DNA of 64,000 bases from Gammaproteobacteria bacterium (lineage in GTDB: Bacteria > Pseudomonadota > Gammaproteobacteria > Steroidobacterales > Rariloculaceae): NCBI GenBank assembly GCA_036555065.1, contig DATBLZ010000166.1, positions 9,043 through 73,042 of the forward strand. The letters are read 5' to 3'. The position numbers and the translations under genes are program-made. Below are positions 1,305-59,330 of this stretch, piece after piece. The notes under the pieces were generated by a model. That model was not told where the DNA came from and ran no database searches. It saw only the letters and a program-made list of their open reading frames with translations. Every line of letters begins with the position of its first letter. Within the stretch, counting starts at the first letter, position 1.

Positions 1305-2275
1305 GCCAAGAGCAGGACCGAGCCTTCGAACAGCTGTTCCGGCACGCGGCGCCGCGGCCGCATCCTCCCCTCGAAATCGAGCGGGAAGTTAAGGCGGCGC
1401 TGCTCGAAGAATGGGATGCCGTCGCCGGGCGCCGGGTGAGGTGGCGCCGCACGGGGTTCGTTGCCGCCGCAGTCGCATTGATCGCCGTCACGGTAGGAGT
1501 TCTTCTCAACGTCGGCGTCGCGCCTGATGCGGTCGTCGTCGCGCGCGTCGAGCGCGTTTCCGGGGAAGTGACCAGCGGGGACGAGCGCTCGCCGAATCGC
1601 CTCGTTCTCGGCGGGGTCGTGACATCCGGCGCAATCGTGTCGACCGGACAAGGGCAAATAGCGCTCCGGCTCAGCGACGGAGGCTCGCTGCGGCTCGCTC
1701 CCGGCACGCGGCTTACGATGGTGTCGGCGCGCGAGACCGATGTCGCTACTGGCATGTTGTACTTCGATTCCGAGCGCGGGACGGCTGCGCCTGCCGCGAC
1801 GCAAGTCGTCGTGCGCACGCCGGCCGGCATCGTGCGCGACGTCGGCACGCAATTCTTAGTGCGGCTCGACGGCGATCGGCTCGACGTCGGCGTCCGCGAC
1901 GGCCAGGTGGCGCTGACGCACAGCGATGGAATCGCGAACGCCGGCGCAGGTGAGCGCTTGATCGTCGATGTTCGATCGGACCGCCTCCAGCGCGGCTCCA
2001 TCGATTCGGTCGGCGCGGAATGGGAGTGGGCGGAAGCCCTCGCGCCGCCGTACGAAATCGAGGGTAGTCGCCTTTCCGACTTCTTGGATTGGGTCGCGGC
2101 GCAAACCGGCCGAAACGTCGCCTATGTCGACGCCAACGCGGAAGCCATCGCGCGCCAGACGACGCTGCGCGGCTCGATAGACCTCGACCCCATGTCGAAG
2201 CTCGCCGCCGTGCTCGCAACGACCGACCTCACGTACACGCTCGAGGGCGCGACCATCCTAATCGGCGTGAAGTAG
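1301..2275 (+). CDS. FecR-family transmembrane anti-sigma factor
   Basis: 324 aa with a single TM segment (GFVAAAVALIAVTVGVLL) and a FecR-like periplasmic region. The C-terminal module (DFLDWVAAQTGRNVAYVD...ATILIGVK) is STN-like. Translationally coupled to the ECF sigma gene. Confidence 0.8.
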   Translation: MSQEQDRAFEQLFRHAAPRPHPPLEIEREVKAALLEEWDAVAGRRVRWRRTGFVAAAVALIAVTVGVLLNVGVAPDAVVVARVERVSGEVTSGDERSPNRLVLGGVVTSGAIVSTGQGQIALRLSDGGSLRLAPGTRLTMVSARETDVATGMLYFDSERGTAAPAATQVVVRTPAGIVRDVGTQFLVRLDGDRLDVGVRDGQVALTHSDGIANAGAGERLIVDVRSDRLQRGSIDSVGAEWEWAEALAPPYEIEGSRLSDFLDWVAAQTGRNVAYVDANAEAIARQTTLRGSIDLDPMSKLAAVLATTDLTYTLEGATILIGVK

Positions 2276-2380
2276 AAGGGCGCGTCCGAGGCCGGCCCCG
2301 CAAGCTAGCACGCCTGCGGCGCGGACCTCGCTCGTCGCGTACAATCCTCGGTCAACGCGGGTCCTGTCGATCGATGCTAC

Positions 2381-4930
2381 GTGACGCCCTGGCGCCGTCT
2401 GCTGATTCCGATGCTAATGGCGTGCGCAGCGAATCTTGCGGCGCCGGGAGCGGCGGCCCAGCCTGCCTCGAGCTATCGCGGCCGGACAGTCCAGGAGGTC
2501 ATCGACGAGCTGCGCGCGCACGGCGCGCCCATCATTTACAGCACGAACCTGCTGTCCGCGGACCTACGTGTTCTCGACGCGCCGACGACCACTGAGCCCC
2601 TGGCGTTAGCGCGTGAGATCCTCGCGCCGCACGGGCTCACGATCGATGCCCGCGACGGCCTTTGGCTCGTTGTGCGCGACCCGAATGCCCCGGCGCAACG
2701 GACGAGCCGCGTGACGGTCGCTGTGGTCGATGCAGGCGGGACGCCGCTCGCCGACTCGACCGTGTGGCTCGATTCTATTGACGGGGAGCGCCGAATTGCG
2801 GTCGAAGGCAAAGCGCAGTTCGACGCCGTGCCGGCTGGCCGGCACGTCTTCCGCGCCCAGGCGCCGGGTTACGCACGCGGGCAAGCCGTGCTCGAGGTCC
2901 GCGCCGGGGCTTCGCAAACCGTCACGGTCGCGCTACTCGAAGCGGTTGAGCCGCCTGCGCTCGATGAGCTCCTCGTGACTGCGAGCCGCTACGACGTCGC
3001 GAACCAAGTCCCGCCGTCAGGCGCCTTCTTTACGCGTGAAGAAATCGAGAACCTGTCCGATCTCGGCGACGATCCGTTGCGCGTCACGCACCGGCTTCCG
3101 GGCATCGCCGCGGGTGACTGGTCGGCACGTTCGTACGTACGCGGCGGGGATCGAAACGAAATGGCCATCTTCTTCGACGGCATGGAGCTCATCGAGCCGT
3201 TCCATTTTCGCGACTATCAAGGCCTCTTTAGCACCATCGACCCGCGCGTCGTGTCCGGGATGCAGATCTATTCGGGCGGGTTCCCCGTCGCCTATGGCGG
3301 CGCCCTCAGCGGTCTTTCGATCATCGACGCGCGCATGCCGACGGAGCCGTTGCAGCACGAGATCGGTCTGAGCTTCTTGCTCACGTCGCTGTTGTCGAGC
3401 GGCACGTTTGCCGATGGACGCGCGGAGTGGGTGGCATCGGCGCGTCGCGGCAATATCGATCGATGGCTCAAGGACGAGCGGGGTGAGCCGAGCTACCGCG
3501 ATCTCTATGTGCACGTTGCGGGCACAGTCGGCAAACACCGGCTTGCATTCAACGCCCTCAACTACGACGACGATATCCTGCTGATTCCCGAGGATGATCC
3601 CGCCGACCTCGAGAGCTCCGTGAGCGAAAGCGACGCGACGCAGCTGTGGCTGCGTATCGACAGCGACTGGACGGATGACCTGTCGGGCACGACGGTCGTG
3701 TCGTCGACGCAATTCAGCAACGAGCGTACCGGCCTCGTGAGCAACCAGGGGCAAATCGCCGGCGCCGCCACGGACCACCGCCGCCTCGAGGGGATCGGCC
3801 TGCGCCAGGATTGGCAGCTCGATCTTACGGACCGCCAGCTTCTGACGTGGGGCTTCGAGATCCGCGAGCTCGATGCCGAATACGACTATGCCAGCCGCGT
3901 CGACGTCCTCGATTCGCTTGCCGCGCTCAACCCGGGCACCGGCACGAGCCAAGCCGCATATCGATTGCGGCCAGGCGGCCATAGCCGTAGCGTTTATTTC
4001 TCCGACCGTATTCGGTTCACGGACCGGCTCGTTGCGGACCTCGGCGTACGCTGGGATAAGCAGACTTACTTGCCTCCAGACGCAGATGAGCAAATTAGCG
4101 GTCGGTCGAGCCTCTTGTACCAACTCGCGCCGGCGACGGACCTGAGGTTGAGCTACGGCCGGTTCTTTCAAGCCGAAGGCTTGATCGAGCTGCAAGTGGA
4201 GGACGGCGTAGTCGATTTTTCGCCGGCCCAGGACGCCTCGCACGCAATCGTGAGCGTCGAGCATCGCTTTGCCAGTGACGTGATGCTGCGCGGGGAAGTA
4301 TTCGAGAAGATCACGCGCAGCCCGCGGCCTCGCTACGAAAATCTGTTTGATCCGTTCGTCGTGCTGCCCGAGCTGCGGCCCGGGCGCGTCCGCATTGCGC
4401 CGGAGCGCGGTGAGTCGCAGGGCGTGGAGATACTCGCGATCGGGCAAGAGCCGCTGAGCTGGTGGGCGGCTTACACTTGGTCGGAGGCTAACGACATCAT
4501 CGACGGCCGGCCTGTGCCGCGCAGTTGGGATCAACGCCATTCGTTGAGCGGCGGCGTGACATGGAACATGCGGCAGTGGACCATGTCCGCGAGCGCGACC
4601 TATCACACCGGCTGGCCGACGACGGACCTTTCGCTCGAGACCGTTGAGCTGCCGAACGGTAGTGCCGCCACGGTCCTCGCGTTGGGCGAGCGCAATGCGC
4701 AGTCGTTTGCGCCGTTCAGCCGCGTCGATTTCGCGACGAGCCGAGTCGTCAGCGCTGGCCACGGCACGGTCAAGTTCTTCGTCGAGGTCACGAACTTGCT
4801 CGATCGCGCCAATCCATGCTGCGTCGAGTTCGAGGTGGTTTCGACGCCCGGCGGCGCACCGGCGCTCAAGCGCAGCGAGGACTATTGGCTGCCCGCCACG
4901 CTCAACGCCGGCGTCCTCTGGGAGTTCTGA
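2381..4930 (+). CDS. TonB-dependent receptor/transducer with N-terminal STN signalling domain and CarboxypepD_reg-like domain
   Basis: 849 aa with signal peptide (LMACAANLAAPGAAAQ). An STN-like segment (YRGRTVQEVIDELRAHGAPIIYS) is followed by an Ig-like segment (VTVAVVDAGGTPLADSTVWL...VTVALLE). Plug region (LVTASRYDV...DLGDDPLRV) and a long beta-barrel ending in the aromatic terminus LNAGVLWEF. Confidence 0.85.
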   Translation: MTPWRRLLIPMLMACAANLAAPGAAAQPASSYRGRTVQEVIDELRAHGAPIIYSTNLLSADLRVLDAPTTTEPLALAREILAPHGLTIDARDGLWLVVRDPNAPAQRTSRVTVAVVDAGGTPLADSTVWLDSIDGERRIAVEGKAQFDAVPAGRHVFRAQAPGYARGQAVLEVRAGASQTVTVALLEAVEPPALDELLVTASRYDVANQVPPSGAFFTREEIENLSDLGDDPLRVTHRLPGIAAGDWSARSYVRGGDRNEMAIFFDGMELIEPFHFRDYQGLFSTIDPRVVSGMQIYSGGFPVAYGGALSGLSIIDARMPTEPLQHEIGLSFLLTSLLSSGTFADGRAEWVASARRGNIDRWLKDERGEPSYRDLYVHVAGTVGKHRLAFNALNYDDDILLIPEDDPADLESSVSESDATQLWLRIDSDWTDDLSGTTVVSSTQFSNERTGLVSNQGQIAGAATDHRRLEGIGLRQDWQLDLTDRQLLTWGFEIRELDAEYDYASRVDVLDSLAALNPGTGTSQAAYRLRPGGHSRSVYFSDRIRFTDRLVADLGVRWDKQTYLPPDADEQISGRSSLLYQLAPATDLRLSYGRFFQAEGLIELQVEDGVVDFSPAQDASHAIVSVEHRFASDVMLRGEVFEKITRSPRPRYENLFDPFVVLPELRPGRVRIAPERGESQGVEILAIGQEPLSWWAAYTWSEANDIIDGRPVPRSWDQRHSLSGGVTWNMRQWTMSASATYHTGWPTTDLSLETVELPNGSAATVLALGERNAQSFAPFSRVDFATSRVVSAGHGTVKFFVEVTNLLDRANPCCVEFEVVSTPGGAPALKRSEDYWLPATLNAGVLWEF

Positions 4931-5033
4931 GCCCCCGCCGAGTAGCCCCCCGGCCGAGACCTCATCAGCATTGCGACCTTTTTTTGGCTCGCCGCCGTCT
5001 AACGCGGTAAGCTATCGACCCTGGGGGCGACGT

Positions 5034-5771
5034 ATGGCAACCGGCCGCACTGAAGACCGGGTATTTCGTCATCAACTCGAGCAGGTCAGCGACTTCGCGT
5101 TCAACGACGCCGTGGCGGCCGTGTTCGACGACATGGTTTCCCGGAGCGTGCCTTTCTATGCGGAGATTCAGCGCATGCTCGCGGAGCTCGCAAGCGCCTT
5201 CGCGACCGAGGGCTCGAACATTTATGACCTCGGTTGCTCGACGGGTACGACACTAACGCTGCTGCACGAGTCGCTTCCCGTGCGGGCGCACCTTTGCGGC
5301 GTCGACTATTCGGCCGACATGCTCGCGCAGTGTCGCGAAAAGTTGGCAGCGCGGGGCTTGGAAGGCGCGATCGAGCTGCGTCAAGCCGATCTCGATGAAG
5401 GCGTGCAGGTCGAAAACGCATCGGTCGTCATGCTCATTTTGACGCTCATGTTCGTTCGGCCGCTGAACCGGGAAAAACTCATCCGCAGCATTCACGCGGG
5501 CCTCAACGAGAACGGCTGCCTGCTGGTGGTCGAGAAAGTGCTCGGCGACGGGTCTCTCTTCAACCGGTTGTTTATCGAGCGCTACTATGAGTTCAAGCGG
5601 CGCATGGGTTACAGCGAGCTCGAGATCACTCAGAAACGTGAGGCTCTCGAGAACATCCTCGTCCCTTATCGACTCCAAGAGAACCGTGATTTGCTGTTGG
5701 GCGCCGGCTTTCGCGAAGTCGAGGTGTTTTTCAAGTGGTACAACTTTGCCGCGTTCGTGGCCGTCAAGTGA
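5034..5771 (+). CDS. cmoA: carboxy-S-adenosyl-L-methionine synthase (CmoA family)
   Basis: 245 aa from ATG 5034; the ORF-track start at 4644 is an Arg/Ser-rich upstream extension. CmoA-type motifs: FNDAVAAVFDDMVSRSVPFY, YDLGCSTG (SAM motif I) and GYSELEITQKREALENIL. Confidence 0.85.
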   Translation: MATGRTEDRVFRHQLEQVSDFAFNDAVAAVFDDMVSRSVPFYAEIQRMLAELASAFATEGSNIYDLGCSTGTTLTLLHESLPVRAHLCGVDYSADMLAQCREKLAARGLEGAIELRQADLDEGVQVENASVVMLILTLMFVRPLNREKLIRSIHAGLNENGCLLVVEKVLGDGSLFNRLFIERYYEFKRRMGYSELEITQKREALENILVPYRLQENRDLLLGAGFREVEVFFKWYNFAAFVAVK

Positions 5772-6490
5772 TGGTCGCGCTCGGCAATTTCTTCTTTCGG
5801 TTTCGCACGACGCTCTCGCCGTTTCTGCTCCTGTTTCTGTTGCTGCCCGGGCCCGCGATCTTCTCGGACCCGTTCCTTGCAGCCGTCGCCGGCTTGGTGC
5901 TTGCGTTCCTCGGGCAGGTCATCCGCGCGTCCACGATCGGGCTCGAGTACATCGTGCGCGGCGGCAGAAACCACCGGGTCTACGCGGATTCGCTCGTGAC
6001 CGAGGGGCTCTTTCGCCATACGCGAAACCCCATGTATGTCGGCAAGTTCTTCATGGTGCTTGGCGCCGGTGTCGCTGCGAATCGCTGGCCGGCAATGCTC
6101 GGCATCTCTGCGGCCTATACATTCATGTATAGCGCCGTCATCCGTGCGGAAGAGGCATACCTGCGGGAGAAATTCGGGCCGGTGTTCGACGAGTACGTTC
6201 GGCACGTGCCGCGTTGGCTGCCGCGTCTTCGCGGGCTTACACAAACGTTGTCGGAATCGCGATTCAATTGGCCGCGAGTGCTTCTCAAGGAGTACAGCGC
6301 GCCACTCGGATGGGCTCTGCCCATCGTGTTGATCGGTATATACAACCTGCGTCAAGCGCCCGGCGCCGACGGGCACCCCTATGCGACCGCGTCGTTGCTG
6401 AGCGTGCTCAGCCTGGTTCTCCTGTTCTGGGTCGTCGTGGGCTGGCTCAAAAAGTCGGGCTCTCCCGCCCTGCGGCTCACCGATAAATAG
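5771..6490 (+). CDS. polytopic membrane methyltransferase, ICMT/PEMT (Ste14p/LmtA-like) family
   Basis: 239 aa with several hydrophobic helices. Family signature LVTEGLFRHTRNPMYVGKFFMVLG followed by RAEEAYLREKFGPVFDEYVRHVPRWLP. ATG 5771 overlaps the cmoA stop (TGATG at 5769-5773). Confidence 0.75.
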   Translation: MVALGNFFFRFRTTLSPFLLLFLLLPGPAIFSDPFLAAVAGLVLAFLGQVIRASTIGLEYIVRGGRNHRVYADSLVTEGLFRHTRNPMYVGKFFMVLGAGVAANRWPAMLGISAAYTFMYSAVIRAEEAYLREKFGPVFDEYVRHVPRWLPRLRGLTQTLSESRFNWPRVLLKEYSAPLGWALPIVLIGIYNLRQAPGADGHPYATASLLSVLSLVLLFWVVVGWLKKSGSPALRLTDK

Positions 6491-6538
6491 GTCGTCATCG
6501 CGCGACCGGTTTCCTGCGCGTTTCCGTCCAACTTAATA

Positions 6539-7522
6539 ATGGGTATAGCCGATGTCCGCGCAGAGTCCACCGGGCGGTTGCTACGCACCTACTGGATGCC
6601 TCGTTACTGGTCGGCCTGGTGTTTGTGGCTTTGGCTGCGCGCCAGCGCCCTCGTATCGATCGACACGGCGCTGTGGGTTCATCGGCGGATCGGTCGAGGG
6701 CTCTACCGGGTTGCCCGCAAGCAGCGTCGCGTAGTGCTGCGCAACCTCGAGCTGTGCTTTCCCGAGCTTTCGTCGGTGGCGGTCAGAGCGCTCGCTAAAC
6801 GACACTTCGAAGCATTAGCAGCGTCGTTCGCGGAATGCGCCATCGCGTGGTTCGCGCCTGACGAGCGTCTCGACGGCCGCTTTGAGATCGTTGGGCTCGA
6901 GCATCTCGAGGCAGCGCTCGAGCGCCGTAAGGGAGTCATTCTTTATACGGGTCATTTCACGACACTCGAGATATGCGGGCGTCCGCTGAAGCACATCACG
7001 CCTCAGTTTGCTTGCCTGTTCAGTAGACGTAGCAATGCACTGCTCGAGGAAATTCAACGGCAAGGTCGAATGCGCATCGCCCATGAAAGCATCCGGAGCG
7101 ACGACGTGCGCGCGATGCTCCGTAGTCTCAAACGCAATGCGGTCGTTTGGTACGCGCCGGACCAGGTGTATCGCCGCGGGCAGCTCGTTCCGTTCTTTCA
7201 TGAGCTCGCGATGACGAACGTTGCGACCAGCAGACTGGCGCGGCTCAGCGGTGCGGCGGTAATCCCGTTCCGCTATCGTCGCCTTGACGGCCAGGGCCGG
7301 TACGAGCTGCAGTTCCATGCTCCCCTAGAAGACTTCCCGACCGACGACGCAATCCGCGACACACGCCGGCTCGTGGAGTGCCTGGAAGAGTTCATCCGCG
7401 CGTGCCCGGAGCAGTATCAATGGGCGCACAGGCGCTTCAGAGCCCGACCGCCTGAGCTCCCGGATCTCTACCGGACCGATCCGGCCCGGCGACGACCGGT
7501 TTCCACTGCTTCGGCGGTCTAA
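6539..7522 (+). CDS. lpxL: lipid A biosynthesis late (lauroyl/myristoyl) acyltransferase, LpxL/HtrB family
   Basis: 327 aa, collinear with E. coli LpxL by eye. Matching segments: PRYW N-terminal TM, NLELCFPE, HFTTLE (HX4E-type acyltransferase motif), VWYAPDQ and CPEQYQWAHRRFR. Confidence 0.85.
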   Translation: MGIADVRAESTGRLLRTYWMPRYWSAWCLWLWLRASALVSIDTALWVHRRIGRGLYRVARKQRRVVLRNLELCFPELSSVAVRALAKRHFEALAASFAECAIAWFAPDERLDGRFEIVGLEHLEAALERRKGVILYTGHFTTLEICGRPLKHITPQFACLFSRRSNALLEEIQRQGRMRIAHESIRSDDVRAMLRSLKRNAVVWYAPDQVYRRGQLVPFFHELAMTNVATSRLARLSGAAVIPFRYRRLDGQGRYELQFHAPLEDFPTDDAIRDTRRLVECLEEFIRACPEQYQWAHRRFRARPPELPDLYRTDPARRRPVSTASAV

Positions 7523-7579
7523 CGGTGATGATGGTCTTTGGGCTTCGCCATGGCCGTGCGGCGTAACTCGTTGGGCGAG

Positions 7580-8752
7580 ATGACGGTGAAGGTCCGCGCG
7601 AACGCGGAGTTTCTGCCTTTCTCGCGACCGTCGATTACTGCTGCAGACATCGCGGCCGTCACAGCCGTGCTCGAGTCCGGCTGGATCACTACGGGCAAGA
7701 TATGCCGCGAGCTCGAACAGCAGTTCGCGCATCTGACCGGGTGCAAGCACGCGGTCGCCATGACTTCCGCGACGGCCGGCATGCACCTTCTACTGCACGC
7801 GCTCGCGATCGGGCCGGGAGATGAGGTCATCACGCCGTCGATGACGTGGGTCTCGACGGTGAATCTGATCACTCTCGCCGGCGCGACTCCGGTCTTTGTC
7901 GACGTCGACCGGGAGACCCTCATGACGACGGCTGACCACGTCAAGGCCGCGCTCAGCGCGAGAACCAAACTGATCATTCCAGTCCATTTCGCCGGCGCGC
8001 CGCTCGATCTCGACTCGCTGCGTGCGGTTGCAGCCGAGCACGGCATTCCTTTGATCGAGGACGCGGCGCACGCGGCAGGTGCGCGATATCGCGAGCAGTC
8101 CGTAGGGCAGACCGGGACAGCGGTATTTTCGCTCCATCCGATCAAGAACCTCACGACCGGCGAAGGCGGAATCGTCTGCACGGACTCGGAGGCGCTCGCA
8201 TCCCGGGTGCGCATGCTCCGATTCCATGGGCTCAGGGCCGACTCGTTCCAACGCGAGACCCAAGGCCGTGCGCCGCAAGCAGAAGTCGTCGAGCCGGGGT
8301 TCAAGTACAACCTGCCCGATATGAACGCCGCGCTCGGCGTGAGCCAGCTCAAGCGTCTGTCGGCAATGAACCGCAGGCGTAAAGAGCTTGCCGATCACTA
8401 CCGGACGTTGCTCGCCGACGTGGACGGCATCGTCCCGCTCGGGCTCCCGTCCTACGAGCACGTGCACGCTTGGCATCTGTTCGTCGTGCGAGTCGTTGCC
8501 GAGGAAACGGGACTGAGCCGCGACGACTTCATGCTGCGCTTGAAGGAGCGGGGCATCGGCACGGGCTTGCATTTTCGCGCGGTACACACACACGCGTTCT
8601 ACCGCAAGCAAGGCCGAGCCCGCCACCCGTTGCCAAATACCGAGTGGAACTCGGACCGGATCTGCTCTCTACCGCTCTTTCCAGACATGGAAATCGCGGA
8701 TGTCGAGCGAGTTGTCGATGCAGTTCGCTCGATTCTGAAGGACCACGAGTAG
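7580..8752 (+). CDS. arnB: UDP-4-amino-4-deoxy-L-arabinose--oxoglutarate aminotransferase
   Basis: About 390 aa, DegT/DnrJ/EryC1 family. Near-collinear with E. coli ArnB ([41 protein letters not shown]). The start is uncertain between 7538, 7550 and 7580. Confidence 0.9.
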
Positions 8753-9745
8753 ATGAATACCCGTTGCGTTTCCATCGTTGTGCCGGTATTGAATGAATCG
8801 GCGAACCTTGCGGAGCTCATTCGTCGCTGCGTCGCCATGGGTGAAACGTTGCGGTGCGCCTTCGAGCTCATTCTCGTCGATGACGGCAGTACCGACAGCA
8901 CGCCCGCGATCGCTAGAGCAGCTTCCGACCGCGACCCCGCGCGCATCCTCGCCGTCATGTTGAACCGCAACTACGGCCAACACGCCGCCGTGATGGCCGG
9001 GTTTGCGCAAGCACGCGGGGACATCGTCGTGACGCTGGATGGCGATCTCCAGAATCCGCCCGAAGAGATTCCGCGGTTGATTGCCGGAATAGAGCAAGGC
9101 GCCGATATCGTGAGCGCCGTTCGACGCCAACGCGAGGATTCGTGGTTCCGCGTGGCTGCATCGCGTTTGATGAACGAGCTCATGTCCAAAGCGACCGGCG
9201 TCTACACGCGCGACTACGGATGCATGCTGCGCGCCTATCGACGCGATATTGTCGATGCGATGCTCGCGTGCAAGGAGCGGAGCCCCTATGTTCCAGCTCT
9301 CGCGAACAGTTTTGCCGGCCGCATCAGCGAGATCGTCGTCGACCACGCCGAGCGCCACGCAGGCGAATCGAAATACCGCACGTGGTCGCTCATCAATCTG
9401 TACTTCGACCTTCTCGTGAGCACGACGACGGCGCCACTACGCCTGCTCAGCATGATCGGCGGCGCGCTCGCGATCATTGGACTCCTGTTCGGAGCGTTGC
9501 TCTTCATCTTGCGGATCGTCTATGGGCCGGATTGGGCGGCGCAAGGCGTATTCACCATATTCGCTGTCCTCTTTTTCTTTCTCGGCGTCCAGCTCTTCGG
9601 CATGGGGCTGCTCGGCGAATACGTGGGACGCATCTCGAGAGACGTGCAGTCACGCCCGCGTTTCCTCGTCCGAGAGATCGTCGGAACGGGATGGCGAGAC
9701 CGTGGCGAATCCAGAGATGCGATCTTAAGAAAATGCGTGCCGTAG
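8753..9745 (+). CDS. arnC: undecaprenyl-phosphate 4-deoxy-4-formamido-L-arabinose transferase (GT2)
   Basis: 330 aa with GT2 motifs [18 protein letters not shown] and [12 protein letters not shown], plus two C-terminal TM helices. Sits in arn gene order. Confidence 0.9.
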
Positions 9746-11790
9746 TTCTCGCTTACCACCAGATGGGCTGCGTTGGGATCAGCGCGCTGCTCCGAAACGG
9801 GTTCGACGTTTGCGCGGTGTTCACGCACGTCGATCGCCCCGGGGAAAACACCTGGTTTCAGTCCGTCGCCGAGCTCGCCGCGGGCGCCAACCTACCGGTG
9901 TTCGCTCCCGACGCCGTGGATCACCCGTTGTGGCTCGAGAAGATCCGCGCGCTGCAGCCGGACGTGCTGTTCTCGTTCTACTACCGGAACGTCGTGTCCG
10001 ACCAATTGCTGGCGATTCCCCGCGCCGGCAGCTTCAATCTGCACGGCTCGTTGTTGCCGAAGTATCGCGGCCGCGCGCCGGCAAACTGGGCGATCCTCAA
10101 CGGGGAAACGGAAACCGGCATCACGCTTCACCACATGGTCGCGCGGCCGGATGCGGGGGACATCGTCGCGCAGCGGCGCGTATCGATAGACCCGACCGAC
10201 GATGCCCGGTCGCTCAATCTCAAGCTCGCCGCGGCGGCAGGGCCTCTACTCGACGAGTGCCTGCCGCTGATTCGGGCAGGAACGGCGCCGCGGCATCCGC
10301 AGGACGAGACCGCCGCTACGTACTACGGCCGGCGGTCGCCTGAAGACGGTGCAATCGATTGGCGCAGGCCGGCGCGCGAGATCAGCAATCTCGTGAGAGC
10401 GGTCGCGCTGCCGTACCCCGGTGCTTTCACGCATGCGCGCTCGACGAAGGTCTTCGTGTGGCAGGCGACGGCGGTCGCGGCTCGAACCACAGCGGCGCCC
10501 GGCACGATCGTGAGCGCCGATCCGTTGGAGGTGGCGTGCGGAGACGGTGTATTGCGCGTGCACCACGCCCAGGCAGACGCCGGCATCTACTGCACGGGTG
10601 CCCAGCTCGCTTCCGAGCTTCATCTCGTCGTAGGTAGCCGACTCGAGGATGCGAAAGAGCGGCGCTCAATGCGCAAGCGCAAGACGCGCGTCCTCATCCT
10701 CGGCGTCAACGGCTTTATCGGCAACTTTTTGAGCGAGCGTCTGCTTGCCGAGGGGCGCTATGAAGTGCACGGAATGGATTTGAACGACTCTGCGATCAAA
10801 CGCCTCGAGGCGCATGCCGACTTCCATTTTCACGAGGGCGACATATCGATCCACCGCGAGTGGATCGAGTATCACATCAAGAAGTGTGACGTCATTGTTC
10901 CGTTGGTCGCTATCGCCACGCCCATCGAGTACACACGCAACCCGCTGCGTGTTTTCGAGCTCGACTTCGAGGAGAACCTGAGGATCGTTCGGTACTGCGT
11001 CAAGTACAAGAAACGCCTCGTGTTCCCTTCGACGTCCGAAGTGTATGGCATGTGCCAGGACGACGAGTTCGACGAGGACACGTCCCGGTTGATCCTCGGC
11101 CCGATCCGGAAGCAACGATGGATCTACTCGGCATCGAAGCAATTGCTCGATCGCGTAATCTGGGCTTACGGACAACAGGACGGCCTCAAGTTCACGCTGT
11201 TCCGCCCGTTCAATTGGATCGGCCCGCGCCTCGATTCCCTCGAAGCTGCGCGCATCGGCAGCTCGCGCGCGATTACGCAGCTCATTTTGAACTTGGTCGA
11301 GGGCACGCCGTTGCTCCTCATCGACGGGGGCCGCCAGAAGCGGTGTTTCACGGATGTCAGCGAAGGCATCGAGTGCCTCTTCAGGATCATCGCCAACGAG
11401 CAAGGCCGTTGCGATGGGCGCATTTTCAACATCGGCAATCCGCGCAACGAGGCCAGCATCAAAGAGCTCGCGGAGCTCCTCGTCCGGGAGTTCCGCCGTC
11501 ATCCCCTCCGCGATCACTTTCCGCCGCTCGCCGGCCTCAAAGAAATCGAGAGTGCCGCGTACTATGGACGCGGCTATGAAGACGTCACTCATCGGCGCCC
11601 CAGCATCGAGAACGCGGCTCGACTTCTGAAGTGGGTTCCAACGATTCCACTCGAAGAGTCGGTGAAGGGAACTCTCGACTATTTTCTGCGCGATCATCTC
11701 GAATCGATCCTGGGCGCGACGGCTTCAACCGCGACGCCATTGCGACAACAGGCCGCTCGGGCCGAAGCGAGACTCACAGGGCGGCCGTAG
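9733..11790 (+). CDS. arnA: bifunctional UDP-Ara4N formyltransferase / UDP-glucuronate C-4'' oxidative decarboxylase
   Basis: 685 aa from ATG 9733; ORF-track start 9142 is an out-of-context extension overlapping arnC. The N-terminal formyltransferase has [15 protein letters not shown]. The C-terminal SDR has [14 protein letters not shown] and YSASKQLLD. Confidence 0.92.
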
Positions 11791-12690
11791 ATGGAGACGA
11801 CGCTCGCGCTACGCGTCGATGTCGATACCTTTCGTGGAACGCGCGACGGCGTCCCCAAGCTGTTGCGCATACTGGCCGCCCACAACGCCAAAGCGACGTT
11901 CTTTTTCACGGTGGGTCCCGACAACATGGGACGCCACGTCCGGAGGCTCCTGCGGCCGCGCTTCGCCGCGAAAATGCTGCGTTCGGGCGCCGCGAGCTTG
12001 TACGGTTGGGACATCCTGCTCGCCGGGACGTTTTGGCCCGGCCGCCACATTGGTAAGGCGCTCCACGAGGTATTACGGGCTACGGAAGCCGCCGGACACG
12101 AAGTGGGCCTCCACGCATGGGACCACCACAAGTGGCAGGTGGCCGCGTTACGCATGTCGGCAGCTGAGCTGCGATCGGAGATCGCTCGTGGCGTTGCGGC
12201 GTTCCAAGAAGCACTGGGTCGCGCCCCGGATTGCTCGGCGGCGGCCGGTTGGATCTGCAACGAACGCGTGCTGGCGGCAAAGGAGGAGTTTGGCTTTCGG
12301 TACAACAGCGATTGCCGGGGGCGAACGATCTTCGTGCCGGTCGTCGGCGGCCGGCGTCTGGCGCCCCAAATCCCGACGACTCTTCCGACCTACGACGAGG
12401 TCGTCGGTCGAGCAGGCGTGACCGACGAAACCTACAACGCGTGGCTACTCGAGCAGATCCTCCCGAACCAACTCAACGTGCTCACCATCCATGCCGAAGT
12501 CGAGGGGATCTCGCGCGCGGCGCTGTTCGACTCGTTCCTCGCAACGTGCGCGCAGAGAGGTGTTCGAATCTCGCCCGTAAGGAGCGCATTAGACGGGGAA
12601 ACGCCTCTTCCGCTCGATGGGATCGATCAAGGCCCGATCCCCGGTCGAGACGGCAGCGTGTGTTGGCAGCGCTCTGCCACTGCGTCCTGA
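11791..12690 (+). CDS. arnD: 4-deoxy-4-formamido-L-arabinose-phosphoundecaprenol deformylase
   Basis: 299 aa, polysaccharide-deacetylase-like (LRVDVDTFRGT, GLHAWDHHKW). The start directly abuts the arnA stop. Confidence 0.85.
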   Translation: METTLALRVDVDTFRGTRDGVPKLLRILAAHNAKATFFFTVGPDNMGRHVRRLLRPRFAAKMLRSGAASLYGWDILLAGTFWPGRHIGKALHEVLRATEAAGHEVGLHAWDHHKWQVAALRMSAAELRSEIARGVAAFQEALGRAPDCSAAAGWICNERVLAAKEEFGFRYNSDCRGRTIFVPVVGGRRLAPQIPTTLPTYDEVVGRAGVTDETYNAWLLEQILPNQLNVLTIHAEVEGISRAALFDSFLATCAQRGVRISPVRSALDGETPLPLDGIDQGPIPGRDGSVCWQRSATAS

Positions 12691-12692
12691 CC

Positions 12693-14360
12693 GTGAGCGT
12701 CGCAGCGACAAAAAGGAGCGAATACTTCGCGCCGCTCGTCCTCATCACACTCTTCGCGATCGTCTATGTGGCGCCGATCGGCTTTCGACCGTTAGTAAGT
12801 CCCGACGAAGTTCGTTACGGCGAGGTCGCCCGCGAAATGCTCGTGTCGGGCGATTGGGTCTCGCCGCGGTTCAACGGTGTCCGCTATTTCGAGAAGCCGA
12901 TTCTCGGACACTGGATCAACGCGCTCTCCCTGGCGGCGTTTGGCGAGAACGAGTTCGCGGTGCGGTTCCCGGCCGCGCTAGCGACGGGCTTGACTGCATT
13001 GATCATCTTTGCGCTCACGCGGCGCTTTGTCTCCGGCTCGAGCGCAACATGGGCTGCCGCGATTTTCTTGACGACGGCTCTGGTCGGCGCCGTTGGGACG
13101 TTCGCCGTGCTCGACCCTTTCCTGAGCTTGTGCACGACGGCCGCCGTCGCGGCCTGGTATCTCGCGCTACACGAACCGGCCGTAGCAAAGCGAGCTCGCT
13201 ATCTCGTGGCATGCGGTGTGGCGTGTGGTGCGGCGTTCCTCGTCAAGGGCTTTATCGGCTGGGCTGTTCCGGCATTGGCCGCGGGAGGATACCTCGTCGT
13301 CCGGCGGCAGTGGCGCTCGTTAGCCACTCTTTCCTGGGTACCGATCCTCGTCGCGATCCTCGTGGCAGCTCCTTGGGCGATTCTCATTCACGAGCGCGAG
13401 CCGGATTTCTGGAACTACTTCTTCTGGGTCGAGCACGTGAAGCGCTTTGCCGGCGACAACGCGCAGCATTCGCGCCCATTCTGGTTCTACATAGCGACAC
13501 TGCCCGGCCTCGCCTGGCCTTGGACGTTGGCGTGGCCCGCTGGTTTCTTGGGTCTGCGCTCCGTGTTGCGACGTGATTCCTTTCTCGTGTTTGTTCTAAT
13601 GTGGGCGCTGCTGCCGTTGGCATTTTTCTCGCTCGCCCACGGGAAGCTGCTGACTTACATTCTTCCGTGCTTTCCCGCGTTCGCCATCCTCCTTGCTGCG
13701 GGGCTCGAGCAGCACGTCAGCCGGTCTCCTCAGCGAGTCATGCGCGGTGCGACTCTCGCGCTTGCCGGCATATTGGCGCTCGAGCTTGCGGCCATTCTCG
13801 TGGCGCAGGCGGGTGGGGTCGGCCGCCCGCTTTACGGCGCGTCCGAGTCCCTGAAGGCAACCGCACTGTGCGTTCTCCTCGGCGTGGGTGTTTGCAGCTC
13901 CGTTGTCGCCTTTCGGAGTGCGCGTTCGGTCACTCGCCTCATGGCGCTCGCGATCGGAGGAGTCGCATTCATCTTGCCGCTCCAGGTCCTTCTGCCCGAA
14001 CGTGTGCTCGACGTAACGGCGCCGACTGTCGCCGTCGCGCGGCACGCGCCTTCGGCGGAGACTGTGGTCGTCGCCGACGCATCGCGATTCGGAACGGTCG
14101 CGTGGACTCTGAAACGAGACGACATCTACGTCGTGAGCTCGGGCGAGATCGGGTATGGCCTCTCGTATCCCGAGGCCCGTTTCCGCGAGCTCACGGGGCG
14201 GATGCTCGCCGCCCTCATCGAGACTGCCGGCGCGCGCGCGGATATTCTCATCGTTTGTAAGCCCGCGACGGTCGCGGCGATCGGCGCGATGCTCCCCGCA
14301 AGGGCCATGCGCTTCCAGGATGGCTCGACCGTGTTCGTCGAGATCCCGAGGGCGAAGTGA
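12693..14360 (+). CDS. arnT: undecaprenyl phosphate-alpha-Ara4N:lipid A arabinosyltransferase (GT83)
   Basis: 555 aa from GTG 12693. N-terminal signature SPDEVRYGEVAREMLVSGDWVSPRFNGVRYFEKPILGHW matches the ArnT/PMT_2 family; many TM helices. The ORF-track start at 12231 overlaps arnD. Confidence 0.85.
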   Translation: MSVAATKRSEYFAPLVLITLFAIVYVAPIGFRPLVSPDEVRYGEVAREMLVSGDWVSPRFNGVRYFEKPILGHWINALSLAAFGENEFAVRFPAALATGLTALIIFALTRRFVSGSSATWAAAIFLTTALVGAVGTFAVLDPFLSLCTTAAVAAWYLALHEPAVAKRARYLVACGVACGAAFLVKGFIGWAVPALAAGGYLVVRRQWRSLATLSWVPILVAILVAAPWAILIHEREPDFWNYFFWVEHVKRFAGDNAQHSRPFWFYIATLPGLAWPWTLAWPAGFLGLRSVLRRDSFLVFVLMWALLPLAFFSLAHGKLLTYILPCFPAFAILLAAGLEQHVSRSPQRVMRGATLALAGILALELAAILVAQAGGVGRPLYGASESLKATALCVLLGVGVCSSVVAFRSARSVTRLMALAIGGVAFILPLQVLLPERVLDVTAPTVAVARHAPSAETVVVADASRFGTVAWTLKRDDIYVVSSGEIGYGLSYPEARFRELTGRMLAALIETAGARADILIVCKPATVAAIGAMLPARAMRFQDGSTVFVEIPRAK

Positions 14361-14713
14361 TCTCGACCACCGCATTTCTCATTGCCGCGGTGGCCCTCTT
14401 GGCTGCGGGCCAGGTGCTACAAAAGCTCGGCGCCGCGCGCCACCTCGCCGATGCAAAGCAGGCGGCAGATTGGGGCCGCGCGCTTCTGTCGCCCGAGCTC
14501 TTGGGGGCGGCGCTGTGCTTGGCATTGGGAATGGTCGCATGGCTCTTCGTCCTCTACAGTACGGATGTCAGCCGCGCGTTTCCGATCCTGAGCTTTGGCT
14601 CGATCGTCGTTCTGGCTGCGTCGCGTTGGTATCTGAAAGAGCACGTGCCGGCGCATCGGTGGGCCGGCGCGCTTCTGATCGTCGTCGGTATTGTGCTCGT
14701 GTCCGCGTCATGA
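14357..14713 (+). CDS. arnE: undecaprenyl-phosphate-Ara4N flippase subunit ArnE (SMR/EamA-like)
   Basis: 118 aa, four predicted TM helices. GTGA overlap with the arnT stop. Position in the arn operon supports the call. Confidence 0.65.
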   Translation: MISTTAFLIAAVALLAAGQVLQKLGAARHLADAKQAADWGRALLSPELLGAALCLALGMVAWLFVLYSTDVSRAFPILSFGSIVVLAASRWYLKEHVPAHRWAGALLIVVGIVLVSAS

Positions 14714-15114
14714 TCGTCCGCTCGCGCTCGGTCGGACTCATGGCCCTAACGACATCCGTCGTTCTGTCCGCCGTCGGCCAACTCGGCATGAAAGTCGGCA
14801 TGCAAAGAATGCACGTCCTTGCAGCCGACGCTGTTCAAATGACGTGGCCCCCGCTCGAGCCCGTCGCTTTCTGGATCGTCGTCGGTATCGCGTCGTATGT
14901 GCTTTCGCTGGCCGCCTGGCTCGTGGTGCTCATTCGCTATCCATTGAGCTATGCGTATCCGTTTTTGGGGCTGAGCTACGTGCTCGTCTACATCGGCGCG
15001 ACTCAATGGGAGGAGCTCGCGGAGCCCGTCACGCCGCTAAGGACGATCGGCACGATCTGCGTAATCGCGGGCGTCGCGCTTGTATCGGCGCGTGCGAAGC
15101 ACGACAGCTTTTGA
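14710..15114 (+). CDS. arnF: undecaprenyl-phosphate-Ara4N flippase subunit ArnF (SMR/EamA-like)
   Basis: 134 aa from ATG 14710, with an ATGA overlap on arnE. Four hydrophobic helices. Position after arnE supports the call. Confidence 0.6.
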   Translation: MIVRSRSVGLMALTTSVVLSAVGQLGMKVGMQRMHVLAADAVQMTWPPLEPVAFWIVVGIASYVLSLAAWLVVLIRYPLSYAYPFLGLSYVLVYIGATQWEELAEPVTPLRTIGTICVIAGVALVSARAKHDSF

Positions 15115-15136
15115 CGGTTCCGACCGTCCAACGCGT

Positions 15137-16837
15137 ATGGAGTCCCCACGCACTTCGAGCCGCGTCCGCTCGCGCACGTGCCGGGCGCGCGGGCATCGCG
15201 CCGTGGGTTCCGCCTCCGCGGTCGCCTCGGCACTACTAGCGGCCGCGGTTCAAGCGCAAACGCCCACGACCCCCGATGCGGCCATCGTCGATGCCGAGCT
15301 CGAGCAGGCCGGCGCCACGATCCGCGCGATCAACGTGACGGTCGACAACGTGTTCGACCCGAGCAATCCGAAGGAAGACAAGGCGCTCTATCGGTGGGCC
15401 AACAACGTGCACGTGCGCACTCGGGTCCCGGTCATCGAGAACGCGCTACTATTCCAAGGCGGCGACCGCTACGAGGCCCGCGTGCTCGACGAATCGGCTC
15501 GCGCGCTGCGCGGACGAGGCTATCTCGCCGACGTGAAAATCGGTCCCGAGAGCTACGATCCCGTCGCCAACACGGTCGCCGTCGATGTCCGCGTCCGCGA
15601 CTCATGGACGCTCGCGCCCGAGCTCAAGTTCTCGCACCGCGGCGGCCAGAGTGAATGGGGCGTCGGCATCGACGACCGCAACCTACTCGGCACGGGCAAA
15701 CAGCTCACGCTCATCGAAAAAAACCTGTACGACCGCAGCGAAACGTTGCTGAGCTACGGCGACCCAAATCTGCTCGGTAGCCGCGTGCATCTCAACGCCG
15801 TGCTTGCGGACGCGAGCGATGGTCACCGGCATGCAATTGTCGCGGAGCGCCCGTTCTACTCGCTCGACACGCGTTGGATGCTCGGTGGAAACGCGTTCGA
15901 CGAGCAGCGCGTCGATCCGATCTACGATCGCGGTGAGGAGATCGACGAGTTCGGGCACGACGTCAACGGATTCACGCTCCAAGGCGGCTGGTCGCGCGGC
16001 TTCGTCGACGGTCGCGCTAAGCGGTTGTTGCTCGGCATTTCCTCGACGGAGGACGTGTTCTACGCGACGCTCGATACGCCCGAGCCGATGCTGCTTCCCG
16101 AGAACCGCAAGCTCGTTTACCCTTGGGTTGGATGGCAGGTGCTCGCCGACGACTATCGCGAAATGAGCGAGCTCAACGACATCGGCCGCACCGAGGACAT
16201 CTCGCTCGGCACGAGCCTTTTCATGAGCGTCGGGTTCGCCGATACGCGCTTCGGCTCCGACCGCGATGCGACGCTGCTGCGCGCGTCGTTCCAAAAAGGT
16301 TGGGAGCCCGGCGGGCCGGGCCGGTTGCTTACGCTGAGTGCGGAAGGCTCGACGCGGGACGAGGATCAGGGGCTGCAGAATTCGATCGTCGAGGCCGCGG
16401 CCCGTTACTACCTCCGCAACTCCGAGAGTCGTTTGCTCGCGGTCACGGCGGCCTTTACCGCGGCGAACAACCTCGACAGCGAGTCGCAGATTTTGCTCGG
16501 CGGCGACAACGGCTTGCGCGGCTACCCGCTGCGTTATCAGGCCGGGGAGCGACGCTCGTTACTGTCGGTCGAAGAACGGTTCTTCACCGATGTCTATCCG
16601 TGGCGACTGTTCCGCATCGGCTATGCGGCGTTTCTAGACGTGGGCCGCGTGTCAGGAACGGATCCGCGTGCGGCGCCGAGCCTCGGAACCTTGTATGACA
16701 TTGGCTTCGGACTGCGCCTGAGCTCGCCGCGCGCAAGCGGCAAATCCGTGATGCACATCGACCTGGCGTTCCCGCTGAACGGCGACCCGACGATCGACAC
16801 GATGCAGCTCATCGTCGAGGCGAAAAGCTCGTTTTAG
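15137..16837 (+). CDS. Omp85/BamA-TamA superfamily outer-membrane protein (single POTRA-like N-terminus plus beta-barrel)
   Basis: 566 aa from ATG 15137. Signal peptide (SAVASALLAAAVQAQT) and NLLGTGKQLTL motif. Alternating beta-strand pattern ends in the aromatic terminus IVEAKSSF. Starts 22 bp after arnF. Confidence 0.65.
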   Translation: MESPRTSSRVRSRTCRARGHRAVGSASAVASALLAAAVQAQTPTTPDAAIVDAELEQAGATIRAINVTVDNVFDPSNPKEDKALYRWANNVHVRTRVPVIENALLFQGGDRYEARVLDESARALRGRGYLADVKIGPESYDPVANTVAVDVRVRDSWTLAPELKFSHRGGQSEWGVGIDDRNLLGTGKQLTLIEKNLYDRSETLLSYGDPNLLGSRVHLNAVLADASDGHRHAIVAERPFYSLDTRWMLGGNAFDEQRVDPIYDRGEEIDEFGHDVNGFTLQGGWSRGFVDGRAKRLLLGISSTEDVFYATLDTPEPMLLPENRKLVYPWVGWQVLADDYREMSELNDIGRTEDISLGTSLFMSVGFADTRFGSDRDATLLRASFQKGWEPGGPGRLLTLSAEGSTRDEDQGLQNSIVEAAARYYLRNSESRLLAVTAAFTAANNLDSESQILLGGDNGLRGYPLRYQAGERRSLLSVEERFFTDVYPWRLFRIGYAAFLDVGRVSGTDPRAAPSLGTLYDIGFGLRLSSPRASGKSVMHIDLAFPLNGDPTIDTMQLIVEAKSSF

Positions 16838-20141: not shown

Positions 20142-20297
20142 TTGCAACCCTCGTGATACGGAGCTGGCGGGGATATTGGCGCAGTATAGCGACGAGGATT
20201 GCCGAAGCAGCGACGCGAAATCCTGGACTGTGACCTGAGTCTCAGTTATGACGCGCCTATGTTAAGCTGCGGCGGCATTCAGAGCAGCAGCCGAGCG

Positions 20298-29546: not shown

Positions 29547-29555
29547 GACGAAACC

Positions 29556-56085: not shown

Positions 56086-56175
56086 AAGCGTCCTTTTCCC
56101 GCTTGTTGGCCGGCCTCGCGGATGAGGATATGCTGCAACGAATTCGCATTCGGCGAAAGGCCTTGGAGTCGAACT

Positions 56176-59247: not shown

Positions 59248-59330
59248 GGGTGAGATCAGGTCTTTTGCTACTATGTTTCGCGCGGCATTGTGGCCCAGCC
59301 ATCGTCCGCCAGGCAATCGCAAACCCGCGT

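Follow-up and report, generated by a model that had tools for sequence, protein, structure and literature searches.

Why should a gene for a carboxy-S-adenosylmethionine (Cx-SAM) synthase run into a gene for an integral-membrane enzyme? The question is raised by a 64,000-nucleotide (nt) stretch of gammaproteobacterial DNA (contig DATBLZ010000166.1; the whole stretch is called the window below). Here a cmoA-like gene for a protein of 245 amino acids (aa), a predicted Cx-SAM synthase (positions 5034-5771, + strand), is coupled to a gene for a 239-aa polytopic membrane transferase of the ICMT/PEMT fold (5771-6490, + strand). From Pfam, NCBIfam, an AF2 model and comparative genomics, we assigned the second protein to a family that we call the RGG clade and characterized it as a predicted Cx-SAM-dependent carboxymethyltransferase. 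We saw that the two genes form a conserved, dedicated two-enzyme module and not a local accident; judging from the protein sequences, it is quite probable that the CmoA-like protein makes Cx-SAM and, jointly with this, that the membrane enzyme carboxymethylates with it.

The two genes and the conservation of their pairing

The preliminary description of this DNA, made from its letters, had reported a cmoA-like gene whose stop codon overlaps the start codon of an ICMT/PEMT-family gene; our coordinates, the TIGR00740 match and the Pfam matches agree with it. The overlap, TGATG, can be read in the sequence at 5769-5773 (+): the TGA of the cmoA-like gene (5769-5771) and the ATG of the membrane gene (5771-5773) have one base in common, and the start at 5771 is backed by the conserved N-terminus MVALGNFFF of the homologues. 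The same description was also right that cmoB does not follow. As the downstream partner has the ICMT/PEMT fold and is not CmoB, we rejected a canonical cmoA-cmoB operon. Neither a second ICMT-like nor a second CmoA-like copy was found within the window. In public annotation the two genes are called 'CmoA' and 'isoprenylcysteine carboxylmethyltransferase family protein'.

The CmoA-like protein scored 231.5 bits with the NCBIfam model TIGR00740, 'carboxy-SAM synthase CmoA' (cut-off 193.3), and its counterparts at other surveyed loci exceeded the cut-off too (L169, 261.6 bits; L167, 225.8; L092, 258.2); the stricter enterobacterial model PRK15451 was not reached by the window protein (159 vs 285). 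Full-length alignments were obtained with the solved CmoA structures 1IM8 (E = 6e-50) and 4GEK. Identity to the CmoA proteins of E. coli and H. influenzae is only ∼40%; inside the clade of pair-linked proteins it is 50-86% across phyla.

In E. coli CmoA, where residue roles have been described, Arg199 forms a salt bridge with the carboxylate of Cx-SAM (PMC3663124); the carboxyl donor is prephenate (PMC10491745, PMC12783734). By alignment, Arg199 corresponds to Arg202 of the window protein (codon 5637-5639, +), which is invariant in this protein and in all 36 aligned pair-linked CmoA-like proteins, inside a near-invariant QKREALENVL motif. Y39, D62, G64, D89 and F137 are invariant in the same set. 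The alignment of cofactor-site residues, a check that had been proposed earlier, came out well at these six positions and less so at two others, Asn132 and Asn90 of E. coli CmoA, which vary in the clade and are Ile and Tyr in the window protein. Its place in the family and its conserved residues suggest that the CmoA-like enzyme is competent for Cx-SAM synthesis, and we predict that it makes Cx-SAM.

The membrane enzyme matched the Pfam family PEMT (PF04191) with 45.3 bits (cut-off 25) and ICMT (PF04140) with 23.1 bits, just below the cut-off of 24. Its AF2 model had a pLDDT (per-residue model confidence) of 80.7, and the best Foldseek matches were the ICMT structures 5V7P, 4A2N and 5VG9 (probability 1.00); 4A2N and 5VG9 were matched in sequence as well. 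Of the two motifs named for this protein before, RNPMYVG is present, at residues 85-91; in the other one Tyr is actually Phe, so that it reads EE..L...FG..F..Y. The string EEAYLREKFG is also present.

The top NCBIfam match of the membrane enzyme was LmtA_Leptospira (TIGR04571), with 71.8 bits over residues 5-182 against a cut-off of 325. Members of the RGG clade scored 67-102 bits with this model; a related clade, termed LmtA-like here, scored 200-260 over the full length, with an outlier at 91.5 (L053). The window enzyme was not accepted as a member of LmtA, being below the cut-off of TIGR04571 and lacking the P-K-G-T-S-G-R-N-T loop, which we defined from the alignment of the LmtA-like clade, upstream of LNTxG. 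Group-wise alignment showed features common to the RGG and LmtA-like clades: LxxxG...RxPxYxG, EExYLRxKFG and an invariant Arg (R52 of the window protein) in the second transmembrane helix (TM2). On sequence grounds, the pair-linked clade is the sister of the LmtA-like clade. From our alignment, we take R52 to be the counterpart of the Arg of beetle ICMT that binds the anionic substrate.

A search of 1.84 billion cluster representatives returned 10 825 matches to the membrane enzyme at E <= 1e-3 and 105 at E <= 1e-30. The RGG motif ([YHF][IV]xRGG) was present in 125 of the best 150 cluster representatives, the TSG motif in none of the 150. The RGG family is thus large, with >1000 homologues and, in the top 150 matches, no fewer than 125 clusters at 50% identity, and it is uncharacterised. 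Other architectures in the family include tandem double ICMT/PEMT domains, a C-terminal OmpA domain and a C-terminal DUF2141 domain (P0168, 507 aa; P0240, 604 aa; P0260, 442 aa; P0228, 366 aa); in P0168 an RGG-type domain is followed by a canonical ICMT-type domain.

The conservation of the pair was surveyed in both directions. In the forward direction, an alignment of the membrane enzyme was run against one genome per species (GTDB). Of the 80 loci recovered, 48 had at least ∼35% identity to the window membrane protein and 32 were more distant, LmtA-like ones. A CmoA-like gene with 50-86% identity to that of the window lies directly upstream on the same strand in 40 of the 48 close loci, and four more, all from Betaproteobacteria (L019, L035, L038, L039), carry a divergent CmoA relative. 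The remaining four have no CmoA-like gene; two of these are second copies in metagenome-assembled genomes (MAGs) with a linked copy on another contig (L013/L007 and L010/L011). Beside the 32 LmtA-like loci a CmoA-like gene was never found. The gaps between the CmoA-like and the membrane gene are mostly -4 to ∼150 nt (380 in L043; L017 is frameshifted), these distances being approximate since start codons were chosen automatically in the survey. The GTGATGGTC junction recurs in L001, L004-L009, L011, L012, L017, L020 and L022. Many of the carrier sequences are MAGs or short contigs.

One unlinked second copy (L002, 9061-9876, +; the same as L013), in the MAG MFD02242.bin.1.297, has a gene for an FkbM-type methyltransferase (PF05050) 125 nt upstream.

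In the reverse direction, metagenome contigs were scanned with an alignment of the pair-linked CmoA clade. Seventy-three contigs extended 300 nt or more downstream of the CmoA gene, and 69 of them carry the membrane enzyme directly after it. Among the exceptions, L101 has a chorismate mutase gene after the CmoA-like gene and then the contig ends; in L126 (4768-5550, +) and L144 (2427-3209, +) the membrane enzyme is replaced by a soluble class I methyltransferase of 260 aa that matched no NCBIfam model, possibly a further, undescribed consumer of Cx-SAM.

Across 37 loci, pairwise identity in one protein tracks that in the other (r = 0.92 overall, 0.61 for inter-clade pairs). The carriers belong to Gamma-, Beta-, Alpha- and Deltaproteobacteria, Gemmatimonadaceae (Gemmatimonadota), Pedosphaera (Verrucomicrobiota), Thermoanaerobaculia, Binatia and Spirochaetales; a cultured carrier is Planctomycetales strain ZRK34 (CP050848.1), with its membrane gene at 8001-8726 of locus L169. 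The MAGs CAWEOP01, CAVUKQ01 and CAWGVW01 also have the pair, and Ramlibacter paludis XY19 has the divergent subtype. Its conservation across phyla, seen in both directions, puts the adjacency far outside what chance would give. The two-enzyme module suggested earlier from this one locus was borne out by the co-occurrence survey.

Could the pair use prephenate and SAM in some other chemistry, either through another SAM derivative or with a membrane protein that binds, exports or hydrolyses Cx-SAM? The low identity of the CmoA clade to the E. coli and H. influenzae enzymes and the variable Asn132 and Asn90 would allow for it. So would the divergent CmoA-related subfamily found beside RGG-type membrane enzymes in Betaproteobacteria, in L019 (10728-11453, -), L035 (3596-4321, -), L038 (5783-6496, +) and L039 (9066-9935, +). 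These proteins have 30-34% identity to the window CmoA-like protein, and their genes are near EptA or a full arn cluster; of the four, L035 and L038 were scanned and scored 124 and 142 bits with TIGR00740, below the cut-off. In all four, the position of Arg199 is held by Ala or Ser and the Arg is displaced to the next residue. This subfamily may make Cx-SAM or a different SAM derivative. In the clade of the window protein, however, Arg199 hardly ever varies, nor does the QKREALEN motif in which it lies; the membrane partner has kept the transferase motifs and the conserved substrate Arg (R52) of ICMT-type enzymes; and every characterised CmoA homologue (CmoA, TglE, MccS, phage CmoA) makes Cx-SAM (PMC10491745, PMC12783734). 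We consider such other chemistry highly improbable.

The cofactor donor of the membrane enzyme

If the CmoA-like protein supplies Cx-SAM, one would look for signs in the membrane enzyme that it takes this cofactor in place of SAM. The residues that set the RGG clade apart lie just upstream of the cofactor motif LVTEG...RNPMYVG, in a loop of residues 60-66 (Y-I-V-R-G-G-R; 5948-5968, +). The full loop of the window protein is Y-I-V-R-G-G-R-N-H; the clade has the form Y-I-x-R-G-G-[RK], as against P-K-G-T-S-G-R-N-T in the LmtA-like clade. Position 63 is Arg in all 46 RGG-clade proteins and Thr in all 32 LmtA-like ones. Other fixed differences between the clades (window residue first) are G64/Ser, Y60/Pro, V76/Asn, Y142/Trp and V146/Thr. 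The positive-inside rule, applied to the predicted helices, would put the RGG loop on the cytoplasmic side, ∼10 residues before the cofactor motif.

In known enzymes, the carboxylate of Cx-SAM is bound by Arg199 in CmoA, by Lys91 and Arg315 in CmoB and by an Arg in CmoX (PMC3663124, PMC10491745, PMC12783734), and selectivity for Cx-SAM was seen to rise with an introduced Arg or Lys, or with a smaller residue near the methyl group (PMC7496830). R63 is therefore a candidate binder of the Cx-SAM carboxylate in the membrane enzyme. By analogy with these precedents, which they fit, the gain of R63 and the changes from Ser to Gly at 64 and from Trp to Tyr at 142 may represent a switch of the donor from SAM to Cx-SAM.

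Further evidence comes from genes for the supply of prephenate. Prephenate is the product of chorismate mutase, on a route whose first step is that of DAHP synthase. Five RGG-clade membrane enzymes, each the representative of a cluster at 50% identity (P0163, P0165, P0177, P0196, P0223), carry at the C-terminus a type II chorismate mutase domain of ∼100 aa (PF01817; 56-66 bits, cut-off 27). A search with P0163 produced 27 clusters of ICMT-like::chorismate mutase fusions at 90% identity, for some of which the JGI name is 'Ste14/chorismate mutase'. Downstream of the fusion, these loci have a gene for a CmoA-like protein that carries the motif RKREALENVLVPYR and scored 225.8 bits with TIGR00740; in L103 the order is CmoA-like gene, then fusion.

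Stand-alone genes of the same pathway are found next to the pair. A chorismate mutase gene (CM_2) lies directly beside the pair in L014, L015 and L042, besides its place after the CmoA-like gene in L101. A DAHP synthase gene is directly upstream of the CmoA-like gene in L018, L021, L032, L129 and L133; it was confirmed by Pfam in L021 and L032, and in L032 it is fused to CM_2. A carboxymethylation cascade of chorismate mutase, CmoA and a methyltransferase has been published in vitro (PMC7496830). A chorismate mutase fusion would be pointless for a methyltransferase using plain SAM and is sensible for a Cx-SAM consumer, which argues for the use of Cx-SAM by the membrane enzyme.

A rival explanation would be that the membrane enzyme is an ordinary SAM-dependent methyltransferase of LmtA/ICMT type and that the CmoA-like protein feeds a CmoB elsewhere, for 5-oxyacetyluridine (cmo5U) in tRNA. 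It could draw on three observations: the window CmoA-like protein passes an equivalog model that also covers CmoA of the tRNA pathway; in its cofactor motifs, the membrane enzyme has the canonical SAM-binding form; and the absence of CmoB (PF08003) was established among the ∼50 window open reading frames (ORFs) only, so that a cmoB gene elsewhere in the genome, and a double duty of the window CmoA, are possible. It would not account for an adjacency in 40 (plus 4 divergent) of 48 and in 69 of 73 loci, in at least nine phyla and with start/stop overlaps, nor for the 0 of 32 among the SAM-using LmtA-like sister clade, nor for the fusion of the membrane enzyme to chorismate mutase and the invariant clade-specific Arg. 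We regard this explanation as very unlikely.

Because of the two-way adjacency, the fusions and neighbours supplying prephenate, and the clade-specific Arg, we consider Cx-SAM, and not plain SAM, the likely donor of the membrane enzyme, as far as sequences can tell; the case for this donor, raised in the preliminary description, has been strengthened. The sequences themselves show the families, the fold, the conserved residues, the gene linkage, the fusions and the statistics of the neighbourhoods; that both enzymes act as proposed, that the donor was switched, which acceptor is used and that the genes are co-transcribed are points that we infer, the transfer from Cx-SAM because of gene linkage, fusions and the clade-specific Arg.

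The steps of the proposed reaction would be as follows. Chorismate would be converted to prephenate by a housekeeping enzyme in the window organism and by a dedicated chorismate mutase in other lineages. The soluble CmoA-like enzyme would then make Cx-SAM from SAM and prephenate in the cytoplasm. The translationally coupled membrane enzyme, with its ICMT/LmtA fold, would bind Cx-SAM in place of SAM, with R63 on the carboxylate. A lipid in its membrane-facing cavity would then receive CH2COO- (+58.005 Da) on an anionic oxygen, at the cytoplasmic face of the inner membrane.

The acceptor and the gene neighbourhood

Which lipid would receive the group? The earlier statement that LmtA methylates the 1-phosphate of lipid A agrees with the literature, according to which this enzyme acts on the 1-phosphate of Kdo2-lipid A using SAM (PMC4402001). 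With LmtA as the nearest characterised relative, and with recurrent LpxL, ArnT and EptA neighbours, a phosphate of lipid A is our best guess for the acceptor, with chances that we put somewhat below even; the conserved R52 is in line with it.

In the window, an lpxL-like gene for a late lipid A acyltransferase (6539-7522, +; Pfam Lip_A_acyltrans, 218.7 bits) starts 48 nt 3' of the pair. In the window's clade, nine more loci (L004, L005, L006, L008, L012, L017, L085, L091, L104) have lpxL immediately after the pair, and in three others a gene for an LpxL-EptA fusion stands 5 kb away. In L001 (same contig as L007) this fusion gene (1716-4433, -) is next to an ECF (extracytoplasmic function) sigma factor gene. 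Its 905-aa product has Lip_A_acyltrans, EptA_B_N and Sulfatase domains, apparently a fusion with a phosphoethanolamine transferase; a similar arrangement is seen in L011. We know of no substrate of LpxL other than Kdo2-lipid IVA/lipid A.

In L092, L096 and L097, from an unrelated lineage of 45% G+C content (GC), the pair is inside an arn-like cluster with the order aminotransferase, GT2, LAB_N ('lipid A biosynthesis N-terminal domain'), pair, GT-C; the full order in L092, all of whose genes were scanned, is GFO/IDH/MocA oxidoreductase, DegT aminotransferase, GT2, LAB_N, pair and two ArnT-like GT-C genes. ArnT-like, ArnC-like or LAB_N genes, full arn clusters or EptA are near L023, L035, L042, L051, L122, L167, L019, L038 and L039.

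When lipid A-type genes (LpxL, ArnT-like, ArnC-like, LAB_N, EptA) were counted within 6 kb, they were present at 16 of 65 pair loci, at 4 of 9 other RGG-clade loci (20 of 74 for the RGG clade in total) and at 3 of 28 LmtA-like loci; the chance expectation is a few per cent, a rough estimate made without a formal genome-wide background. Clustering of all neighbours within ±7 kb, and separately of same-strand immediate neighbours, revealed no universal third gene; the top neighbour clusters were lineage-specific (short-chain dehydrogenase/reductase (SDR), histidine kinase, response regulator-SpoIIE, ABC, YceG, RuvX). As for the linkage to lpx and arn genes expected from the window, that with lpxL holds in close gammaproteobacterial relatives and that with arn is not general.

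These counts leave room for a second possibility, in which the same module with the same donor acts on another membrane or membrane-proximal molecule. Candidates would be a glycerophospholipid head group (by PEMT-like N- or O-alkylation), undecaprenyl phosphate (Und-P) or an Und-P-linked amino sugar at the cytoplasmic face, ornithine lipid or another aminolipid, or the carboxylate of a lipidated peptide. Three things speak for such an acceptor: the 49 of 65 pair loci without a lipid A gene within 6 kb and the wide variation of immediate neighbours; the alkylation of O, N and S within the ICMT/PEMT superfamily, according to family descriptions; and the enzymes for Und-P-sugars (GT2, LAB_N, GT-C) that adjoin L092, L096, L097, L042 and L167. 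However, the nearest characterised relative is LmtA, lpxL is the conserved immediate neighbour in the clade of the window, and EptA and arn clusters recur near RGG-clade genes of Betaproteobacteria. We therefore rate an acceptor other than lipid A as unlikely, with a real chance nonetheless.

The reading with lipid A would continue as follows, this being its weakest step. The acceptor would be lipid A or a Kdo2-lipid A precursor, probably at a phosphate as with LmtA, so that a phosphoglycolate-type diester would result. In the window organism the product would be made alongside acylation by LpxL, before the periplasmic addition of 4-amino-4-deoxy-L-arabinose (Ara4N).

Several observations weigh against this full reading. 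The match to LmtA is far under the cut-off (71.8 vs 325), loop 62-70 around R63 was modelled at pLDDT < 50, and the residue at Asn132 of E. coli CmoA varies across the clade, with Ile in the window protein. About three-quarters of the pair loci (the 49 of 65) lack a nearby lipid A gene, immediate neighbours are heterogeneous (SDR, histidine kinase, RuvX/YceG, efflux), and the neighbouring Und-P-sugar enzymes are equally compatible with an Und-P-linked substrate. LmtA-like genes with the TSG motif were found in L057 (a Methanocellales archaeon MAG) and L080 (Firmicutes bacterium UBA5324), which are not expected to make lipid A; either these bins are contaminated or the LmtA-like clade has substrates beyond lipid A, and so the clade may not be restricted to lipid A. 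Finally, a carboxymethyl phosphate would retain a negative charge, and synergy with Ara4N is not obvious. The lipid A acceptor of the preliminary description was thus not established, given the distance from LmtA and lipid A-type neighbours at 16 of 65 loci. Taken as a whole, the reading of the module as a Cx-SAM synthase with a membrane carboxymethyltransferase acting on lipid A falls just short of an even chance.

The genes after the lpxL-like gene are arnB-arnC-arnA-arnD-arnT-arnE-arnF for the Ara4N pathway (7538-15114, +), contiguous with the preceding genes. ArnA (1082 bits, cut-off 777) and ArnD (391, cut-off 382) exceeded their NCBIfam equivalog cut-offs; ArnB (605 vs 631), ArnC (430 vs 529) and ArnT (462 vs 567) were below the cut-off, as were ArnE and ArnF, each of the five still having the expected model as its top NCBIfam match. 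The last gene of the same-strand string is weakly assigned as an Omp85/POTRA-like outer-membrane protein (15080-16837, +; Pfam Omp85 and POTRA at E ∼1e-3, NCBIfam BamA 40.6 bits). Of the string as described before, lpxL and arnBCADTEF stand on the + strand, and the identity of the Omp85 member is weak.

Upstream of the pair are genes for an ECF sigma factor (666-1304, +) and a FecR-like anti-sigma factor (1301-2275, +) and, directly before it, for a TonB-dependent receptor with a CarboxypepD_reg domain (2381-4930, +). The same trio precedes the pair in L001/L007, L005, L008 and L011; one could speculate that cell-surface signalling through it might regulate the module. A scan of 4700-7700 for promoters and terminators found no promoter-like site, and terminator-like sites were not clearly above shuffles; the scan was uninformative on operon boundaries.

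With a GC of 64.8% and housekeeping genes such as purL, the window resembles chromosomal DNA of an uncultured gammaproteobacterium of soil type, and its closest relatives are MAGs labelled 'Gammaproteobacteria bacterium'. The pair, lpxL and the arn genes have a GC of 0.59-0.65 (purL 0.68, window mean 0.648), and at third codon positions (GC3) the pair and arn genes are likewise slightly below housekeeping genes. This dip is too weak to support a horizontally acquired island.

Elsewhere in the window we observed a gene for an FHA-domain protein of the type VI secretion system (T6SS) (FHA and T6SS_FHA_C; 18747-20147, -), with no other T6SS genes recognised among the scanned neighbours. An ABC-2 transporter cluster (26575-31120, -) includes a 702-aa protein in which an Acyl_transf_3 membrane acyltransferase domain is fused to an ABC ATPase; it may be a unit for O-acylation and export of polysaccharide or lipopolysaccharide (LPS). 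A bacterial homologue of angiotensin-converting enzyme is encoded at 55966-57963 (+; Peptidase_M2, 689 bits). Genes for a sulfotransferase (58006-59322, -), a polyprenyl synthetase (60089-60997, -) and a squalene/phytoene synthase (61032-62135, +) are clustered and may form an isoprenoid or hopanoid-type lipid locus.

Relation to known systems and significance

The view of CmoB as the only known consumer of Cx-SAM, held in the preliminary description, is outdated. TglF, MccB's C-terminal domain and the phage enzyme CmoX also use it, all of them, with CmoB, soluble Rossmann enzymes (PMC10491745, PMC12783734). In full-text literature we found no paper in which lipids, LPS or an enzyme of the ICMT, PEMT or LmtA type are tied to CmoA or Cx-SAM; an apparent link between cmoA and lipid A in a Coxiella lipid A paper was discarded, the matches being the name of a culture medium, 'cMoAb'.

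Like CmoA/CmoB of E. coli (cmo5U34 in tRNA), the window pair combines a CmoA-family synthase having the Arg199 equivalent with a dedicated transferase, and would take the carboxyl group from prephenate. Unlike the soluble Rossmann protein CmoB, the window partner is polytopic and of the ICMT/PEMT fold, and its acceptor is presumably a membrane lipid instead of tRNA. There is also a likeness to TglE/TglF (3-thiaglutamate), MccS/MccB C-terminal domain (microcin C-like) and phage CmoA/CmoX (5-carboxymethylcytosine), where a CmoA homologue is beside a transferase other than CmoB and serves a new class of acceptor. There a basic residue recognises the carboxylate of the cofactor (PMC10491745, PMC12783734); here R63 is only a candidate for this role. 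Those transferases are soluble class I enzymes acting on peptide, nucleotide-peptide and DNA, whereas the window consumer would be an integral-membrane enzyme of class VI type (ICMT fold), and modules of the window type, unlike theirs, often carry their own chorismate mutase or DAHP synthase.

With LmtA of Leptospira interrogans (TIGR04571) the membrane enzyme shares the fold, the length of ∼240 aa, the topology, the cofactor motifs and the TM2 Arg, and the window gene is in a lipid A context. LmtA adds a methyl group from SAM, however, whereas the RGG clade has Y-I-x-R-G-G and is nearly always coupled to CmoA, as LmtA-like genes never are. ICMT/Ste14 and PEMT (PF04140/PF04191) have the same fold and the motifs R-x-P-x-Y-x-G and E-E-x2-L-x3-F-G; the window enzyme differs from them in being bacterial, in two extra C-terminal helices (as in LmtA), in the absence of a prenyl-protein context and, probably, in the donor.

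The comparison suggests three things that would be new for modules of a Cx-SAM producer and consumer: an integral-membrane fold of the consumer, a new class of acceptor, and precursor-supply genes of their own. Cx-SAM is a rare cofactor with four known systems (tRNA, peptide, peptidyl-nucleotide and phage DNA), all with soluble transferases; a membrane-embedded consumer, if true, would extend carboxymethyl transfer to the cell envelope. The broadest statement, that the RGG clade comprises the first integral-membrane Cx-SAM-dependent carboxymethyltransferases, which with CmoA, and often chorismate mutase or DAHP synthase, install a carboxymethyl group on lipid A, is offered tentatively; we think it more doubtful than not.

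The natural fusions with chorismate mutase are a blueprint for engineered carboxymethylation cascades in vivo. E. coli makes Cx-SAM natively, and expression in this host was the design used for CmoX (PMC12783734).

Should lipid A be the acceptor, the LPS of diderm bacteria from soil and water would carry a modification that is both new and widespread. This could affect how cells withstand cationic peptides and polymyxin, the charge of the outer membrane and recognition by innate immunity; the group could act as a modulator of charge or steric fit, or as a carboxylate handle for further amidation. For the families themselves, the use of Cx-SAM by the membrane partner, if true, would account for many 'orphan' cmoA genes auto-annotated as tRNA modification genes, and would give a function to the big RGG family.

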